Shown here: positions 36,797-42,328 of the stretch, one piece after another
Numbering within the stretch: the first letter of the stretch is position 1
Layout: the number at the start of each line of letters is the position of its first letter
Assembly: GCA_016184225.1 (NCBI GenBank)
Contig: JACPDA010000004.1
Location: 208,372-272,371, forward strand
Source of the DNA: Candidatus Daviesbacteria bacterium
GTDB taxonomy: Bacteria > Patescibacteriota > Microgenomatia > Daviesbacterales > UBA10151
Direction of reading: 5' to 3'
Length of the DNA: 64,000 nucleotides
Notes under the pieces: model-generated
What the model was told of the DNA's origin: nothing
Seen by the model: only the letters and a program-made list of their open reading frames with translations
Database searches by the model: none
Position numbers and translations under genes: made by a program

Positions 36797-37220
36797 AGAG
36801 TGCAAAGTGATAAGTGCAAAGGGTAGAGTCAGAATACAAAGTTATAAAGATCTTCTAGTTTGGCAAAAATCTCATAAGTTAGCAATTGCAATTTTAGAAT
36901 TATCCCGTAAAGCAAGTCGTAATAAAGAGAATTATTTTATCTGGAGCCAATTACTTAGAGCTGCTTTTTCGGTACCGGCTAATATCGTGGAAGGTTACTA
37001 TAGTCATAGAGGGAAAAACTACCTTTCCAAATTGGAAGTTGCAAGAGGTGAAGCCGGTGAAACAGAGTATTGGCTCTTTGTAATGTTCGAGATTGCAGAA
37101 TTAGATGAAATGCCTTATAATTCTTTAGTTGGAGAGTGTAAGGAAGTGATTTTAATGTTAAGTGCCATGATTAAAAAATTAACTTGACTTAAGCACTTAT
37201 CACTATTCACTTAGCACTTT
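36797..37220 (+). mobile_element. Inverted-repeat-flanked insertion carrying a four-helix-bundle (23S-rRNA-IVS-family) gene, between tuf and rpsJ
   Basis: Left flank ..AGTGATAAGTGC.. (36805-36816) is the exact inverse complement of right flank GCACTTATCACT (37192-37203), with additional GTGCAAAG / CACTT.GCAC imperfect pairing; cargo-less copy at 42253-42328. Confidence 0.5.
36807..37187 (+). CDS. Four-helix-bundle protein (23S rRNA intervening-sequence protein family)
   Basis: DLLVWQKSHKLAIAILEL.., FSVPANIVEGYYS.., ARGEAGETEYWLFVMFEIAELD match family hallmarks; GTG start. Confidence 0.8.
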   Translation: MISAKGRVRIQSYKDLLVWQKSHKLAIAILELSRKASRNKENYFIWSQLLRAAFSVPANIVEGYYSHRGKNYLSKLEVARGEAGETEYWLFVMFEIAELDEMPYNSLVGECKEVILMLSAMIKKLT

Positions 37221-37226
37221 AAAACT

Positions 37227-37535
37227 ATGCCAAGAGGACGAATTCGCGTAAAACTGAAAAGTTACGATCATCGGGTGTTAGATCACACCTGTGAATCCTT
37301 GTTGGATACAGCCCTTAGAACCGGCGCCAAGATAGTCGGCCCAATCCCCCTTCCTACTAAAAGAGAAATGATTACTGTTTTAACTTCTCCTCACACAGAT
37401 AAAGATTCCCGAGAAGCTTTTGAGATCAAAACCCACAAAAGAATGATTGATATTATCGAACCTACCCCAAAAACCATAGATTCTCTTATGCATCTGGAAA
37501 TCCCGGCCGGAGTTGATATTGAAGTAAAGATGTGA
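37227..37535 (+). CDS. rpsJ: 30S ribosomal protein S10
   Basis: [14 protein letters not shown].., 102 aa. Confidence 0.9.
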
Positions 37536-37551
37536 TATAAAGTTTGGCGAT

Positions 37552-37833
37552 ATGGTTGTAATAGAAACAAAGATATTCGGAATTCCAATTCACCGAGAAC
37601 AAGTTAAATCCCCAGCAATGTTTAAAGTTCCAACTGCTTATGAGAGGAAACAAGGAGAGGAACTTTGTTTACAAGATGATGGAGATGGATTCAAATGGGT
37701 TTTGGTAAAAGAGGGTCATGTTCAAAAATTGGATAATCCGATCCCCGACTGGGTAAGCTTAGGATACTCAGGAATCATCGGACGCAACGTATCGTTAACA
37801 TTCTTTTCAAGAAGGTTAGTACTACCACATTAA
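37552..37833 (+). CDS. Hypothetical protein (93 aa) inserted between rpsJ and rplC
   Basis: ORF only; followed by about 265 nt of structured non-coding RNA. Confidence 0.35.
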   Translation: MVVIETKIFGIPIHREQVKSPAMFKVPTAYERKQGEELCLQDDGDGFKWVLVKEGHVQKLDNPIPDWVSLGYSGIIGRNVSLTFFSRRLVLPH

Positions 37834-38063
37834 CTTCCACGGCCGTAGCATACTCTGTGGTTTATCCATATTACATCTCTGCTTGCATTCACGCATGAGC
37901 TTGTGTTAAAATTTCCTTTGTCTGATGATTTATTTATCAGGTTGATTAAAAATTAATTAATTTTCAGTAGGTTGTGCGTCCTGAGCGATGGTGAGCGAAG
38001 TCGAACCAGAGTCGAAGGATACGACAATTGAAGGCCACGTCAAACGTGGCAGGCACAATTACT

Positions 38064-38098
38064 GAGTGACTTAGCCTAAAGGCGGGTCACTCTTTTTA
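38064..38098 (+). promoter_or_regulatory. Terminator-like hairpin (GAGTGAC..GTCACTC + TTTTTA) abutting the rplC start; possible attenuator / L4-type leader structure
   Basis: 7-bp stem 38064-38070 / 38086-38092 then a U-tract directly before the ATG. Confidence 0.35.
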
Positions 38099-38110
38099 AT
38101 GTTTGAAAAT

Positions 38111-39620: not shown

Positions 39621-40048
39621 TAGTCCTGAAAAGGCCAATTATAACTGAGAAGTCTATGAAACTGGCCCAAGGCGGCTTGTATGCTTTTGAGGTAGACAAA
39701 AACGCGACTAAACCTTTGATTGCGAGAGCAGTTGCTGAAAAGTTTAGTGTTAAGGTTTTGGAAGTGAAAGTGGTCAATGTTAAAGGGAAGATTAAACAGC
39801 AAAAAAGGGCGAGAAAAACTTATCAAACAGCAGGGTTTAAAAAAGCTTTAGTGCAGGTTAAAAAGGGCGAGAAAATTGCCATTTTTGAGACTCCGAAGGA
39901 AGAAGAGGTGACAGTGACAACTGCAGAAGGTGAGCCAATGAAGTTGAAGGAGAAGAAAGATCTTTTGGGCCGAACTAAAGTTAAAGTGGAAAGAAGTGCA
40001 GTAGGAGCAGCTCCGACAACTCAGCGAAAGGTAATAACAGGGAAATGA
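39617..40048 (+). CDS. rplW: 50S ribosomal protein L23 with C-terminal extension
   Basis: L23 N-terminal region; order L4-L23-L2. Confidence 0.85.
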   Translation: MIVLKRPIITEKSMKLAQGGLYAFEVDKNATKPLIARAVAEKFSVKVLEVKVVNVKGKIKQQKRARKTYQTAGFKKALVQVKKGEKIAIFETPKEEEVTVTTAEGEPMKLKEKKDLLGRTKVKVERSAVGAAPTTQRKVITGK

Positions 40049-40785
40049 GTAATTTAAAGACTTTGCTTAAAAAACATTCCGGAAGGTCCTCTGGCGGAAT
40101 GGTGACTGTCAGAAGCCAGGGCGGCAGGCATAAAAGATATTATAGGGAGATTGATTTTAAGAGGGATAAATTTGGGGTTTCCGGTGAGGTAGTAGCTTTA
40201 GAATATGATCCAAATAGGAACGTGCAGATTGCCTTGGTTAAATATACAGACGGGGAGTATAGGTATATTTTAGCCCCAAAAGGGTTAGGGGTAAAAGATA
40301 AAGTGGTATCAGGAGAAAAGATTGAATCTAAGATAGGTAATGCCATGAGGCTTAAAAATATTACAGTCGGGACACTAGTGCATAACGTAGAACTCTCGCC
40401 TGGTAAGGGCGGACAGATCGGTCGGAGTGCCGGAGTGGCTTTGCAGCTTTTGGCTAAAGAAGGCAGTTTTGCCCAGTTGAAAATGCCCTCAGGTGAGATT
40501 AGAATGGTGCCTCTTCAGTCTTTGGCGACAATCGGCAGTTTAGGGAATGAAGAAATAAGGCAACGGGTTATAGGAAAGGCCGGTAGGTCCCGCCATATGG
40601 GTATTAAGCCAAATGTTAGGGGTGTAGCCCAAGATCCTGATTCACATCCGCACGGCGGAGGAGAAGGCAGGTCTGGGATTGGACGTAAAACACCGATGAC
40701 CAAATACGGTCGGCCGGCTGTTGGTAAAACCAGAAATAGAAAGAAATGGACCAATAGATACATAATGAAAAGGAGAAAACCATAA
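40045..40785 (+). CDS. rplB: 50S ribosomal protein L2
   Basis: Conserved L2 sequence (..GRNN.GRITVRHRGGGHKR-like [18 protein letters not shown]..). Confidence 0.95.
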
Positions 40786-41066
40786 TGGGCAGGTCAACTA
40801 AAAAAGGTCCGTATATTGATGAAAAATTAATGAAAAAAGTGATGGCTCAAAAGACCGGTGCTAAAAACCCAATCAAAACTTGGGCCAGAAGGTCACAGAT
40901 CCCACCGGAATTTGTAGGACACACTTTTTTAGTCCACCAGGGCAAGAATTTTGTAACAGTGTTTGTGAGTGAGTCAATGGTTGGACATCGACTCGGGGAA
41001 TTTGCCCCAACAAGACTTTTTAGGAGCCATGGAAAGGTGACTGAGAAGAGTGTGGCCAAGACATAG
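40785..41066 (+). CDS. rpsS: 30S ribosomal protein S19
   Basis: [19 protein letters not shown].. Confidence 0.9.
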
Positions 41067-41168
41067 TTATTCGTCATTCCGAGGTCCGCCAAAGGCGGAC
41101 CGTGGGAATCTTGATTACAAGAAAGATTGCCACGTCGTTTCACTCCTCGCAATGACAGGAAGAAAATT

Positions 41169-41585
41169 ATGGAAATAACAACTATACAAAAATACATACA
41201 TACCAGCCCCCGGAAACTGAGATTAGTGACGGATATGGTTCGTAACATGGAACCAGCCAGGGCTTTAGCTGTTTTGGGTTTAACTCCGAAAGTTGCTGCT
41301 AAAGATTTGGGGAAAGCATTGAAGACGGTTTTAGCCAATGCAAAACAGAGAGGCTTGGATACTTCCAAACTAACTTTTAAAAAGGTGGAGATAAACGAAA
41401 GCATAAAAATGCGCCGCTTCAGGGCAGGCACTAAAGGCAGGGTTAGGCCATATAAGAGAAGAATGAGCCATATAAAGATAGTTTTAAGTGATGGGTTGGA
41501 TCAAGAGTCTAGAGTCAAGAGTCTAGAGTCAAGTAAGAATACAGAACAATCCAAAGAAAAGAAAGGAGAAAAGTCTGACAGCTGA
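41169..41585 (+). CDS. rplV: 50S ribosomal protein L22 with C-terminal tail encoded by a (N)AGAGTC heptamer array
   Basis: ..SPRKLRLVTDMVRNM.. L22 core; track ORF begins at an upstream TTG (41127), ATG at 41169 fits the L22 N-terminus better. Confidence 0.85.
   Translation: MEITTIQKYIHTSPRKLRLVTDMVRNMEPARALAVLGLTPKVAAKDLGKALKTVLANAKQRGLDTSKLTFKKVEINESIKMRRFRAGTKGRVRPYKRRMSHIKIVLSDGLDQESRVKSLESSKNTEQSKEKKGEKSDS
41503..41533 (+). repeat. (N)AGAGTC heptamer array x4 inside the rplV 3' end
   Basis: AAGAGTC TAGAGTC AAGAGTC TAGAGTC. Confidence 0.6.
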
Positions 41586-41610
41586 AAGCTGAAGACTGAT
41601 AGCTAATTTC

Positions 41611-42252
41611 ATGGGACAAAAGATACATCCGGTAGGTTTCAGAATGGGCATTGGGGCGACCTGGAAGTCTCGTTGGTTTGCTAGTGGAGTAAAGTATCAA
41701 CAATACTTGGCCGAGGATTTAAAAATCCGTAATCTTCTGATGAAGAAATTGCGGCCAGCAGGCATTGGTTCTATAGAAATAGAAAGAGCGGTAAATAAAT
41801 TAAAAGTAATAATCTATGTTTCTCGTCCGGGAGTTCTAATCGGACGCGGAGGGAGTGGTTTAACTGAAGTTAAAAAGTTTCTAATGAAGGAGCTTAAGAT
41901 TAAAGATGAGAATAGTTTAGAGATTGCCCCAATGGAATTAAAATCGGCTGACCTTTCAGCTTATCTTATTGCTCAATCTGTGGCAGAACAGCTTGCTCGT
42001 AGGCTTCCTGCACAAAGAGTAATGAATCAGGTAATCGAGAGGGCAATGAGGGCAGGCGCAAAAGGAGTAAGAATTGTTTTGTCCGGTAGGATTGGCGGAG
42101 CTGAAATTGCCAGGCGCGAGTGGAAGGCTGCCGGTACCATGCCTTTACATACGCTTCGGGCCGATATAGACTTTGTTGTTTATCCGGCACTTACAAAATC
42201 CGGGTATGTTGGGGTGAAGGTGTGGATTAACAAAGGAGAGGTAGAAATATAG
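41611..42252 (+). CDS. rpsC: 30S ribosomal protein S3
   Basis: KH-like N-terminal region; order L22-S3-L16. Confidence 0.9.
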   Translation: MGQKIHPVGFRMGIGATWKSRWFASGVKYQQYLAEDLKIRNLLMKKLRPAGIGSIEIERAVNKLKVIIYVSRPGVLIGRGGSGLTEVKKFLMKELKIKDENSLEIAPMELKSADLSAYLIAQSVAEQLARRLPAQRVMNQVIERAMRAGAKGVRIVLSGRIGGAEIARREWKAAGTMPLHTLRADIDFVVYPALTKSGYVGVKVWINKGEVEI

Positions 42253-42328
42253 TGCAAAGTGCAAAGGGAAAAGTGCAAAGTCAAAAAAAGACTTAGCACT
42301 TAGCACTATTCACTAATTACTAATTATT
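42253..42328 (+). repeat. Solo (cargo-less) copy of the inverted-repeat element that flanks the four-helix-bundle gene; (GTGCAAAG)x3 + CTTAGCACTTAGCACTATTCACT, hairpin-forming
   Basis: Left and right halves match the flanks at 36797-36826 and 37188-37220. Confidence 0.55.

Follow-up and report, generated by a model that had tools for sequence, protein, structure and literature searches.

The segment 36797-37226 of the window (the whole stretch of DNA analysed, 64 kb) is a member of a widespread, conserved cassette in which a PF05635 gene forms the loop of a long, imperfectly paired hairpin. The cassette is co-directional, extends from the tuf stop codon to the rpsJ start codon, and comprises:

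36797-36833, forward strand: 5' arm, AG AGTGCAA AGTGATA AGTGCAA AGGGTAG AGTCAGA, with five in-phase AG from 36799
36807-37187, forward strand: four-helix-bundle protein gene (PF05635/TIGR02436, Avd-like), GTG start, 126 aa
37188-37226, forward strand: 3' arm, CT units at 37196, 37203, 37210 and 37217, out-of-phase CT at 37188 and 37225

The 5' arm begins 1 nt past the tuf stop codon and includes the GTG start (36807) of the four-helix-bundle gene, while the 3' arm runs right up to the rpsJ ATG (37227), with no Shine-Dalgarno sequence in that arm ahead of rpsJ. Heptanucleotide units, about five per arm, make up both arms: (AG-N5)x5 on the upstream side and, as its complement, (N5-CT)x5 on the downstream side; in arrays of this type the AG dinucleotides keep an exact 7-nt phase, with five units per arm. 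When the whole cassette RNA (443 nt) is folded, the arm stem closes the MFE and centroid structures alike. Since the AG-arm/loop/CT-arm arrangement is its own reverse complement, the active strand and the active form, RNA or DNA, are not readable from it.

The features given in the preliminary description are all present in the sequence, at most 2 nt from the positions it assigned. These include the 12-bp inverted repeat, AGTGATAAGTGC at 36806-36817 with its exact reverse complement GCACTTATCACT at 37193-37204, and the octamers GTGCAAAG (36800 and 36814, also 42252, 42259 and 42273) and CTTAGCAC (37210, 42292, 42299). To read the flanks as such repeats, however, misses that they have a heptad period, follow a five-unit rule and exemplify a general arrangement. 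GTGCAAAG occurs 8 times against 2.5 expected, a count reached in 0 of 100 shuffles; CTTAGCAC by itself shows no significant excess (3 matches, 1.4 expected), and would be compatible with a chance likeness between low-complexity, A-rich spacers. Such a chance likeness is refuted, and its remaining probability practically nil: the phased pattern AGTGNNNAGTGNNNAGTG (at most one mismatch) occurs 13 times against 0.21 expected, always at the same three sites; 7 alone among the periods is enriched in the window, with 21 arrays, where periods 4-13 give 0-3 and shuffles likewise 0-3; fold z-scores go down to -7.5; and the architecture recurs in independent assemblies of many phyla.

Two copies of the cassette's unit family are hairpins that carry no gene:

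42251-42326, forward strand: gene-less AGTGCAA-family hairpin between rpsC and rplP, 5+5 units; -21.6 kcal/mol, z -4.1
1835-1903, forward strand: third AGTGCAA-family copy, in frame within infB, 5+5 units

The units of the first copy are AGTGCAA AGTGCAA AGGGAAA AGTGCAA AGTCAAA, a loop, and ACTTAGC ACTTAGC ACTATTC ACTAATT ACTAATT; its first AG shares bases with the rpsC TAG stop, and its arm ends 2 nt from the rplP ATG. The peptide encoded by the infB copy, VQSEKGKVQSGLNTQHSSL, stands between GAYQ and ITFIDTPGH in the G domain of IF-2. Together with the joined flanks of the gene, both copies align at 73% mean column identity, which bears out the earlier proposal of gene-carrying and gene-less forms of one repeat family; with the infB copy the likeness is no longer confined to the two sites first noticed. 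Presence/absence variation, then only a prospect, is found as well, since the rpsC-rplP hairpin is missing at the same junction in a relative (L009) and most relatives lack the infB insert, which one of them has in a form shortened by 7 aa. The gene-less copies appear and disappear, and within ORFs their length shifts by three-unit steps.

These copies are part of a larger population of 5+5 heptad hairpins in the genome, like the STRR hairpins of cyanobacteria. At gene junctions of the 64-kb window there are at least six more hairpins of like build with other unit sequences, listed here with an unpaired array inside a gene:

189-262, forward strand: AGGCAAC-type hairpin (5+5), 2 nt before the ATG at 265; -34.7 kcal/mol, z -7.5
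5597-5672, forward strand: AGAGTCN-type hairpin (5 AG / 4 CT), 4 nt before the ATG at 5677
41504-41609, forward strand: AG arm AGAGTCN x5 (rplV 3' end) and CT arm CTGANAG x5, 1 nt before the rpsC ATG
43309-43430, forward strand: AG arm x6 and CT arm x5, the CT arm reaching the next gene's ATG (43431)
46600-46695, forward strand: AG arm x6 and CT arm x6, ending at the ATG at 46696; -31.7 kcal/mol, z -3.3
50908-50975, forward strand: intergenic TAGAGTC-type hairpin (5 AG / 4 CT), immediately ahead of a short ORF that starts ATGAAAGTA, which we take to be a putative rpmJ
38353-38401, forward strand: unpaired in-phase AG array x7 of CAGGCAA units within rplC

The stem at 189-262 is highly regular, with one internal loop per 7 nt. 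The AG arm at 43309 lies within a C-terminal extension of rpsQ (S17) and the one at 46600 within the 3' end of rpsE (S5). Compared with L3 of relatives, the rplC array amounts to 7 inserted residues (21 nt). At 41504-41609 the two arms lack mutual complementarity; because the arms at 41504/41575 and 43309/43396 are non-complementary or only partly complementary, pairing is not obligatory.

At every junction 0-8 nt separate the end of the CT arm from the next start codon, no Shine-Dalgarno sequence stands ahead of the hairpin-preceded genes, and most heptad hairpins have no gene inside. All this would suit hairpins that are host intercistronic control elements produced by replication slippage, with the four-helix-bundle gene as an unrelated passenger. 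As reported through PMC4679880, no long simple repeats outnumber heptanucleotide ones in most prokaryote genomes, which agrees with such an origin, and a coupling or stability role has already been proposed for STRR hairpins (PMC2670836). The role proposed for slippage hairpins here, translational coupling or mRNA stabilisation, is of the same kind. We nevertheless hold the passenger explanation to be improbable, and largely refuted by a comparison across phyla.

For this comparison, 80 metagenome loci were picked by protein similarity (a peptide pattern) alone. Period-7 arrays lie upstream of the gene in 47 of them and downstream in 50, with 42 loci having one on either side. Arms bracket 40 of the 69 testable four-helix-bundle genes but none of 161 other ORFs in the same loci, and about 40% of the sampled genes have no detectable arms. 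AG is present in 44/49 upstream units and CT in 45/50 downstream units. Near the gene, the length of in-phase runs peaks at exactly five units (39, 37, 66 and 18 runs of three, four, five and six units), whereas control dinucleotides fall monotonically over the same lengths (761, 234, 76, 29); arrays far beyond five units occur in L069, L191 and L202. Between the two arms of a locus, agreement at the variable unit positions is 0.70; with partners permuted it drops to 0.37 and in 200 permutations never exceeds 0.43. Co-directional flanking ORFs end or start only a few nucleotides from the arms, and the only consistent cargo between them, over an arm-to-arm gap of 345-510 nt, is the four-helix-bundle gene, a recurrence that an unrelated passenger leaves unexplained. 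Like arrangements are found in Ruminococcus (L087) and Planctomycetaceae (L069), a cultured example is Nostoc punctiforme NPUN_RS35280, and 7 of 12 IMG/VR loci on viral contigs are positive.

One of the loci, L156, is a genuine helix-45 intervening sequence (IVS) of 23S rRNA: a four-helix-bundle gene with heptad arms sits immediately upstream of GACGGTAGGAGAGCGTT, within the LSU rRNA match. The classical 23S rRNA helix-45 IVS is thus the same cassette in an rRNA setting, and the parallel drawn in the preliminary description becomes a direct one, with a PF05635-family gene between like arms. Like pairing inside 23S rRNA also speaks against the passenger explanation, as translational coupling would be meaningless there.

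Closer to the window, nine Daviesbacteria-like (CPR) genomes share the order tuf-gene-rpsJ, with proteins 57-91% identical. The cassette is therefore old, and its gene-carrying copy has been inherited vertically in this clade. Orthologous sites differ in their unit sequences; the arms of six orthologues, once joined, fold arm to arm in all six cases (z -2.0 to -6.6), and the arms drift in sequence yet retain heptad phase and mutual complementarity. A mobile or processing element was first suggested; the gene-carrying copy is no recent mobile insertion.

A fuller version of mobility is a non-autonomous system of MITE/REPIN type, in which the hairpins would be mobile or copied DNA, the four-helix-bundle factor would mobilise or spread them and the gene-less copies would be its dispersed progeny; it overlaps our preferred explanation in part rather than excluding it. 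RAYT genes are flanked by REPs, and here too a gene is bordered by its own repeats. One unit family stands at three unrelated sites within 64 kb, one of them inside an ORF, close relatives are polymorphic at infB and rpsC-rplP, and the reach of the architecture, from CPR to Firmicutes, Planctomycetes, cyanobacteria, rRNA genes, plasmids and viral contigs, argues for horizontal spread. We consider this system possible but unlikely, because the genes adjoining the cassette include no transposase and no HUH or recombinase domain, the 126-aa helical bundle has no known catalytic motif, and the gene-carrying copy keeps to one fixed junction. Moreover, the variation of units between orthologous sites fits evolution in place better than repeated re-insertion, whole-unit length changes resemble slippage, and protein comparison at infB indicates replacement of native loop residues rather than a clean insertion.

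Membership of the 126-aa ORF in the IVS four-helix-bundle family, proposed at the outset, is confirmed by profile searches against PF05635 (E 3.6e-27, 95 bits, cut-off 33.8) and TIGR02436 (E 1.1e-28), and structure matches agree. The AF2 model has a pLDDT of 91.5; residues 1-13, whose coding DNA is the 5' arm, are modelled as disordered. Foldseek ranks 2GSC and 2RLD (chains A-E) first, followed by Avd 4DWL (chains A-E) and the DGR ribonucleoprotein 8UB7. In a sequence search, 2GSC and 2RLD are each represented by five chains. PF05635 is known to resemble Avd and is the commonest Pfam adjoining DGR reverse transcriptases (PMC10053308), and the fold matches 4DWL and the Avd chains of 8UB7 with a TM of about 0.74; the gene could on these grounds be an Avd accessory gene left over from a diversity-generating retroelement whose reverse transcriptase and template/variable repeats are gone. 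We disfavour such a remnant and rate it very improbable, because the neighbours are tuf and rpsJ in 9/9 genomes, without a reverse transcriptase, no template/variable repeat pair was seen, and sequence identity to Avd is 13-14%, with the free-standing structural-genomics proteins 2GSC and 2RLD much nearer.

The explanation that we favour, at somewhat better than even confidence, is that the cassette is a co-transcribed stem-loop, combining the rRNA-IVS kind with STRR-like hairpins. No excess of promoter or terminator signals is seen at the cassette, so it is presumably transcribed with tuf and the S10 operon. Pairing of the RNA arms would bring together the tuf stop and the rpsJ start and bury the cassette gene's own GTG start. 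On the model of rRNA intervening sequences, the stem is probably cleaved by RNase III; this would separate the cistrons, free a small mRNA and give the downstream gene a very short leader devoid of a Shine-Dalgarno sequence. Alternatively, a ribosome terminating on tuf might melt the stem, which would couple translation.

More speculatively, the cassette protein, whose solved relatives have five chains in each crystal entry, might bind an arm with every subunit taking one of the five AG-phased units, and so govern stem formation at its own cassette and at gene-less hairpins, an idea drawn from analogy and from the numerical coincidence of five units and five chains. The invariant residues of the protein include the acidic E62 and E85, which is unusual for a surface binding nucleic acid and counts against arm binding. 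The window holds one four-helix-bundle gene and three unit families; the protein therefore cannot serve all of them if it reads the variable positions.

Among known systems, DGR Avd shares the fold and is a nucleic-acid-binding pentamer in an RNA-protein complex (PMC10053308). The cassette differs in having neither reverse transcriptase nor TR/VR repeats and in its low identity, and heptad arms are unreported for Avd genes. A working analogy for the numerical match is a ring of N subunits reading N phased purine motifs, here AG-N5 x5, as in TRAP, a ring oligomer recognising (G/U)AG x11 RNA repeats; the folds are unrelated, and arm recognition by the cassette protein is supposed by us.

Neisseria Correia elements, ERIC and REP/BIME are likewise short dispersed hairpins in operon intergenic regions, co-transcribed and processed in mRNA. 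As in REP-RAYT, a gene is bordered by its own repeat family and many gene-less copies lie elsewhere. In contrast to REP-type elements, the cassette arms are degenerate heptads with no fixed consensus, the gene encodes a small helical-bundle protein and not an HUH transposase, and terminal TA or target duplications are undocumented. Rickettsia palindromic elements (RPE) are in-frame palindromic insertions in protein-coding genes; they enter essential genes in tolerant surface loops, as the infB copy does. Their sequence and organism are unrelated, and the cassette family changes length by 21-nt (three-unit) steps.

Intervening sequences of 23S rRNA with an ORF (Leptospira, Coxiella and others; helix 25/45; excised by RNase III) also have a PF05635 gene in a stem loop with terminal inverted repeats, and the cassette, like them, belongs to a highly expressed host transcript. 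Here the host is instead the mRNA of tuf and the S10 operon, the arms lie directly against a stop codon and a start codon, and RNase III excision is proposed by analogy. To our knowledge, no description of IVSs mentions arms built of five heptad units.

Cyanobacterial STRR consist, like the arms, of tandem 7-nt units that often form hairpins between co-transcribed genes. Two classical units, CCCCAGT and CAACAGT, contain AG, and AGTCAAC, a rotation of the latter, flanks a four-helix-bundle gene in L134. STRR hosts are heterocystous cyanobacteria, whereas the host here is a CPR bacterium. STRR hairpins lie between genes such as the co-transcribed hupS-hupL, their function being unknown (PMC2670836), and even within an RNase P RNA gene, as Vioque (1997) is cited in PMC2858038. 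The literature searched contained neither a link between STRR and PF05635 genes nor the AG phase or five-unit rule. Recurring in many bacterial phyla, the heptad bracket ties the gene family of IVS proteins to the unexplained heptanucleotide repeats of bacterial genomes.

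The inverted repeats that enclose the four-helix-bundle gene between tuf and rpsJ are part of a wider set of heptanucleotide arrays in the window. The preliminary description had reported an inverted 12-mer around this gene, GTGCAAAG and CTTAGCAC repeats and a gene-less copy near 42250-42330, and each of these is indeed present. In register, the 5' flank of the cassette reads AGTGCAA AGTGATA AGTGCAA AGGGTAG AGTCAGA and its 3' flank is a run of N5-CT units; the gene-less copy at 42251-42326 has AGTGCAA AGTGCAA AGGGAAA AGTGCAA AGTCAAA on its AG side and, after the loop, ACTTAGC ACTTAGC ACTATTC ACTAATT ACTAATT on its CT side. 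For the phased pattern AGTGNNNAGTGNNNAGTG, 13 occurrences compare with 0.21 expected, which is far from chance. Period 7 alone is enriched in the window, with 21 arrays compared with 0-3 for other periods (4-13) and 0-3 in shuffled sequences, and TRF likewise reports period 7. Runs of at least 4 units at an exact 7-nt spacing number 20 for AG, mostly of exactly five units, and 10 for CT. By pairing each AG arm with the CT arm that follows it we defined nine elements in the window, listed here together with the gene that one of them carries:

AG arm at 189, CT arm at 228: heptad element, AG/CT pairing
AG arm at 1835, CT arm at 1869: heptad element in infB, AG/CT pairing
AG arm at 5597, CT arm at 5650: heptad element, AG/CT pairing
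AG arm at 36799, CT arm at 37196: heptad element with the four-helix-bundle gene, AG/CT pairing
36807-37187, + strand: four-helix-bundle gene, GTG start, 126 aa
AG arm at 41504, CT arm at 41575: heptad element, AG/CT pairing
AG arm at 42251, CT arm at 42292: heptad element, AG/CT pairing
AG arm at 43309, CT arm at 43396: heptad element, AG/CT pairing
AG arm at 46600, CT arm at 46654: heptad element, AG/CT pairing
AG arm at 50908, CT arm at 50948: heptad element, AG/CT pairing

At least three unit families (AGTGCAA, AGAGTCN and AGGCAAC) are represented among the nine elements. The AGTGCAA family has three copies within the 64 kb, whose alignment has a mean column identity of 73%. The third, at 1835-1903 inside infB, lies beyond the two sites of the preliminary description, which had missed it; it is in frame and adds VQSEKGKVQSGLNTQHSSL to the IF-2 G domain loop. 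In all intergenic elements the CT arm stops 0-8 nt 5' of the next ATG, and no Shine-Dalgarno sequence was found before the genes that follow them. Several AG arms double as coding sequence, extending the C terminus of the upstream ribosomal protein; these proteins are S17 and S5 (Pfam) and the product of a gene that we read as rplV (L22). Most elements fold as hairpins better than shuffled sequences do: the stretch 189-262 reaches -34.7 kcal/mol (z -7.5), with a helix of 4-6 bp and a small internal loop per 7 nt, and the copy at 42251 reaches -21.6 kcal/mol (z -4.1). The arms of the elements at 41504 and 43309 are not properly complementary. The hairpins had no Rfam match at the gathering threshold over the whole window, nor at E<=1 over 36700-43500.

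Heptad arrays also occur unpaired. Three perfect or near-perfect arrays have no AG/CT partner, and their copy numbers are again about 4-5: (AAATTCC)x4.9 at 20934-20967 inside a YceG/MltG-like gene, (GTCGTCA)x4.1 at 39386-39414 in an ORF read as rplD, and (AATTTAA)x4.6 at 51099-51130, just 5' of the gene at 51148. Four five-unit in-phase AG arrays without an obvious CT arm all lie in coding regions, namely those of methionine aminopeptidase (50184-50218), the C-terminal extension of L17 (53814-53848) and RecX (61269-61303 and 61487-61521).

The 126-aa protein belongs to the PF05635/TIGR02436 family, as had been proposed from the sequence: both profiles are matched above their curated cut-offs, PF05635 with 95.1 bits (cut-off 33.8, E 3.6e-27) and TIGR02436 with 99.6 bits (cut-off 24, E 1.1e-28). 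Its AF2 model has four helices (pLDDT 91.5) and a disordered segment at residues 1-13. The solved structures closest to the model in Foldseek are 2GSC and 2RLD (TM 0.79-0.84), each with five chains per entry, and the next matches are 4DWL and 8UB7 (TM ~0.74), which are structures of Avd, the accessory protein of diversity-generating retroelements. Avd is a pentamer, and all five chains (A-E) of 4DWL are among the fold matches. A reverse transcriptase with a TR/VR pair was not found next to the gene, whose neighbours are tuf and rpsJ in all nine genomes, and tblastn gave no second four-helix-bundle gene in the 64-kb window. PADLOC and PHROGs returned no match for the protein, and a defence or phage-structural role is therefore without support. 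In a passage of a large CRISPR survey, '23S rRNA IVP' is named among the proteins newly associated with CRISPR adaptation modules (PMC10910872), possibly a further nucleic-acid-related context for the PF05635 family.

An unbiased sample of 80 metagenome loci, chosen only by the peptide patterns of the protein (30-47% identity), reveals that the bracket is a property of the gene family and not peculiar to the tuf-rpsJ locus. A period-7 array lies no more than 150 nt upstream of the gene in 47 loci, downstream in 50 and on both sides in 42. The unit sequences vary by locus (AGGGTCT, AGCTATC, AGTTATA, AGGTGAC and others), yet 44 of 49 upstream units contain AG and 45 of 50 downstream ones contain CT. 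The longest in-phase upstream AG run has a bimodal distribution, its background lying at 1-2 and its mode at exactly 5, and the same is true of the downstream CT run; no other dinucleotide shows this behaviour. Near the gene, runs of 3, 4, 5, 6 and 7 units were counted 39, 37, 66, 18 and 5 times, and the counts for control dinucleotides fall monotonically (761, 234, 76, 29). The architecture is specific to the PF05635 family: an AG arm upstream and a CT arm downstream bracket 40 of the 69 testable four-helix-bundle genes, compared with 0 of 161 other ORFs of at least 100 aa at the same loci, and no ORF except the four-helix-bundle gene recurs between arm pairs 150-1500 nt apart. At about 40% of the four-helix-bundle genes no arms were detected.

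The two arms of a locus co-vary, agreement at the variable unit positions being 0.70 within loci and 0.37 after permutation (maximum 0.43 in 200 permutations). The gap from arm to arm is 345-510 nt, and the gene fills this loop tightly. The arms are placed between stop and start codons, with a co-directional ORF ending about -30 to +23 nt from the 5' arm in roughly 30 of 39 loci and another starting -7 to +43 nt from the 3' arm in 27 of 41. We rejected an AG arm upstream as strand evidence, since an AG-arm/loop/CT-arm structure is its own reverse complement and thus carries no strand information; the orientation data are informative only in the purine dinucleotide lying on the 5' arm (40 cases versus 2 reversed) and in the co-directional flanking ORFs.

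The resulting rule, that the gene stands between (AG-N5)5 and (N5-CT)5, that the arms co-vary and that run lengths peak at five, applies across CPR bacteria, Firmicutes, Planctomycetes and cyanobacteria. When AGTGNNN x4 was scanned over one genome per species, the matches listed came from many phyla and included, by chance, two bracketed four-helix-bundle genes, one in Ruminococcus sp. (locus L087) in the arrangement (AGTGGTT)n / gene / (AACCACT)n and one in Planctomycetaceae (locus L069) with AGTGGGC units. Gene-less AG-to-CT hairpins among the matches listed belong to Acidobacteriota, Planctomycetota, Verrucomicrobiota, Bacteroidota, Bacillota, Nitrospirota and cyanobacteria. In tblastn against plasmids, cyanobacteria dominate the matches (Nostoc, 18 of 35 records). 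On pNPUN02 of Nostoc punctiforme PCC 73102, NPUN_RS35280 has (AGGAGTC)5 and (GACTCCT)5 as its arms, with the next gene beginning immediately behind the arm; PCC 7120 retains the 3' arm alone intact. Arms accompany 7 of 12 IMG/VR homologues. Very long arms were observed in cassettes L069 (5717-5930 and 6886-7010), L202 and L191, with up to ~30 CCCACTG/CCGACTG-type heptads per arm on the L069 contig, so arms are able to expand far beyond five units. A literature search, chiefly of journals other than subscription titles, gave nothing that connects PF05635/TIGR02436 genes with heptanucleotide arrays, which leaves novelty unproven.

Comparison with related genomes indicates that the gene-carrying copy is syntenic and the gene-less copies are polymorphic. 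The preliminary description had proposed comparing both of its junctions for presence/absence variation; the tuf-rpsJ cassette is constant in nine genomes (L009, L010, L013, L216, L217-L220 and the source organism), and it is the rpsC-rplP hairpin, together with the infB insert, that varies. Across these nine genomes the four-helix-bundle proteins are 57-91% identical, and either the cassette is old and vertically inherited in the clade or the junction is an extreme hot spot. Orthologues differ in unit sequence (AGTGCAA, AGTGGAT, AGTGCAC, AGGGAAA) and retain the heptad phase, an arm length of approximately five units and the pairing between arms. In folds of the joined arms, each of six orthologues pairs arm to arm, at -21.7 to -36.8 kcal/mol (z -2.0 to -6.6). 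A paralogue of 54% identity follows a type IV pilus gene and has AGTACAA arms. The gene-less copies, for their part, are dynamic. Between rpsC and rplP, the relative L009 has an unrelated spacer and lacks the hairpin. The IF-2 loop is 27 aa long here, 13 aa in most relatives (70-80% identity) and 20 aa in protein P0052, where the peptide is the same except that 7 aa, corresponding to 21 nt or three units, are missing. An array within the rplC ORF is a 7-aa insertion relative to L009 and L010.

The IF-2 loop (infB 1686-3176, residues ~47-70, between GAYQ and ITFIDTPGH) is an insertion hot spot in CPR relatives, and the proteins P0050, P0056, P0064, P0071, P0084 and P0091 of other CPR genomes have unrelated inserts there, for example IPEESKSRESEANRGIPRQARDDLAENRK or ISPKGEPSSPAKDDFLSAGHK, which look like translations of other repeat families. 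In two relatives the 3' arm of the tuf-rpsJ cassette contains a nested small hairpin (…CACTAGCGAAGCGATTCCCTAATCACT…; L013 2633-2723 and L217 1327-1383), and the four-helix-bundle gene of L013 encodes a shorter protein of 106 aa, which suggests secondary insertions or decay within the arms. Within the S10 operon, the adjacent rpsJ-rplC junction seems to be a place where accessory genes land: it holds a 93-aa ORF without a Pfam match and a 265-nt gap in the window (37552-38098), a Sigma70_r4 protein in L009 (10738-11677) and, in L013 (3156-3816), a PIN toxin and a partner ORF on the opposite strand. At 31227-31759, two adjacent ORF fragments of 86 and 78 aa are, judging their translation by eye, probably one split gene of histidine-phosphatase type, a pseudogene; they lie inside a 1.36-kb stretch without long ORFs, between fusA and a 281-aa ORF (30157-31002) that has no Pfam match.

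Consensus scans gave no excess of promoters or terminators in or around the cassette, from which we infer that it is co-transcribed with tuf and the S10 operon. In the 443-nt cassette RNA the arm stem closes the structure in both the MFE and the centroid; this predicted stem joins the tuf stop (GCAUA) to the rpsJ start (UAUGC) and covers the GTG start of the cassette gene. RNase III cuts the stem of 23S rRNA intervening sequences (IVSs). By analogy, cleavage of the stem by RNase III would separate tuf from the S10 operon, free a small mRNA and leave rpsJ with a leader of few nucleotides. An alternative is classical coupling, in which a ribosome that terminates at the end of the upstream gene opens the stem at its base and so makes the following start codon accessible. 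As regards cleavage, the very short rpsJ leader that it would produce fits a genome with many apparently leaderless starts. TATAAT-like boxes (ggtataat, ggtacaat, ggtaaaat, gggtaaaat, tagtataat, gatataat) lie 6-10 nt 5' of the ATG, with no Shine-Dalgarno sequence, at 10963, 13103, 14292, 35612 (tuf), 48453 and 49324, which suggests widespread leaderless mRNAs in this Daviesbacteria organism.

TRAP reads phased (G/U)AG repeats, and a pentamer taking one AG-N5 unit per subunit would be analogous. PF05635 proteins might accordingly be ring pentamers that read five phased AG-N5 units in ssRNA or ssDNA, forming a new protein/repeat system, a speculative reading that draws on the sharp mode of five phased AG per arm and on the five-chain structures, and which, taken whole, we regard as rather unlikely. 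The gene and its two arms would then be a self-regulating, possibly self-propagating, core, with dispersed target sites in the gene-less 5+5 hairpins, whether these lie at operon junctions, within structured RNAs or inside ORFs. Such a pentamer would account for the number of units, for the constancy of the dinucleotide and for the freedom of the remaining five positions to vary; it might also control whether the stem forms at its own start codon and at the gene-less hairpins. Against it stand the arms that are much longer than five units, the non-complementary arm pairs, the ~40% of family genes without detectable arms, and the presence in the window of a single such gene for three unit families.

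The ORF inside 23S rRNA IVSs has been known since the early 1990s and the STRR heptanucleotide repeats of cyanobacteria since 1990; to our knowledge, no function has been assigned to either. The IVS ORF, the STRR repeats and the excess of 7-nt repeats in prokaryotes may be one phenomenon, and the pentamer reading, if true, explains the orphan ORF of IVSs, the STRR hairpins and much of the prokaryotic heptanucleotide excess. If unpublished, the cross-phylum rule links three unexplained phenomena and is directly testable; with a growable, engineerable host (Nostoc punctiforme) and crystal structures (2GSC, 2RLD), a binding experiment and a knockout are immediately possible. For annotation, the hairpins add in-frame insertions and C-terminal extensions to CPR ribosomal proteins and IF-2, stand in for Shine-Dalgarno regions at operon junctions, and are likely break points in short-read assemblies.

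With MITEs and REPINs the window shares several dispersed copies of one sequence family (three in 64 kb) and presence/absence polymorphism at orthologous sites (infB, rpsC-rplP), and the infB copy behaves like a Rickettsia palindromic element. No transposase domain was found among the genes called next to the cassette in the window and in relatives. Transposon-like mobility is possible, given the polymorphism, with no transposase or target duplication documented.

The STRR heptamers of cyanobacteria form hairpins of unknown function between genes such as hupS-hupL, and roles in transcript stability or translational coupling have been proposed for them (PMC2670836). [quoted passage not shown] The window likewise has tandem 7-nt units in several copies, and its inverted arrays can form hairpins between co-transcribed genes; on the other hand, the host is a Candidatus Daviesbacteria organism of the CPR/Microgenomates and not a heterocystous cyanobacterium, and the units are AGTGCAA, AGAGTCN and AGGCAAC, not the classical STRR units. 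In their features the gene-less copies match STRR hairpins, here in a non-cyanobacterial host.

The likeness to rRNA IVSs concerns the gene-carrying copy. The sample of 80 loci includes a 23S rRNA gene, L156 (Rfam LSU, 1513 bits), in which the four-helix-bundle gene lies between AGGGGCG/AGAGGCG-type arms, followed directly by GACGGTAGGAGAGCGTT, which we take, from the E. coli sequence, to be the conserved 23S sequence immediately 3' of helix 45, a classical IVS site. Thus, the ORF-bearing rRNA IVS is the same cassette in another host transcript. The 23S-5S spacer of this locus holds a gene-less heptad hairpin (2237-2310; AGTTCTT AGTGCTT AGCACTT AGTGCTT ...). The Daviesbacteria cassette differs in lying between tuf and rpsJ and not in 23S helix 25 or 45, and no rRNA match was obtained in the 64-kb window. 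Its arrangement is identical to that of an rRNA IVS: terminal inverted repeats form a stem around a PF05635 ORF, and the same arms are found in the IVS of L156. The parallel drawn in the preliminary description therefore holds, and the cassette is better described as an mRNA-borne form of the IVS cassette.
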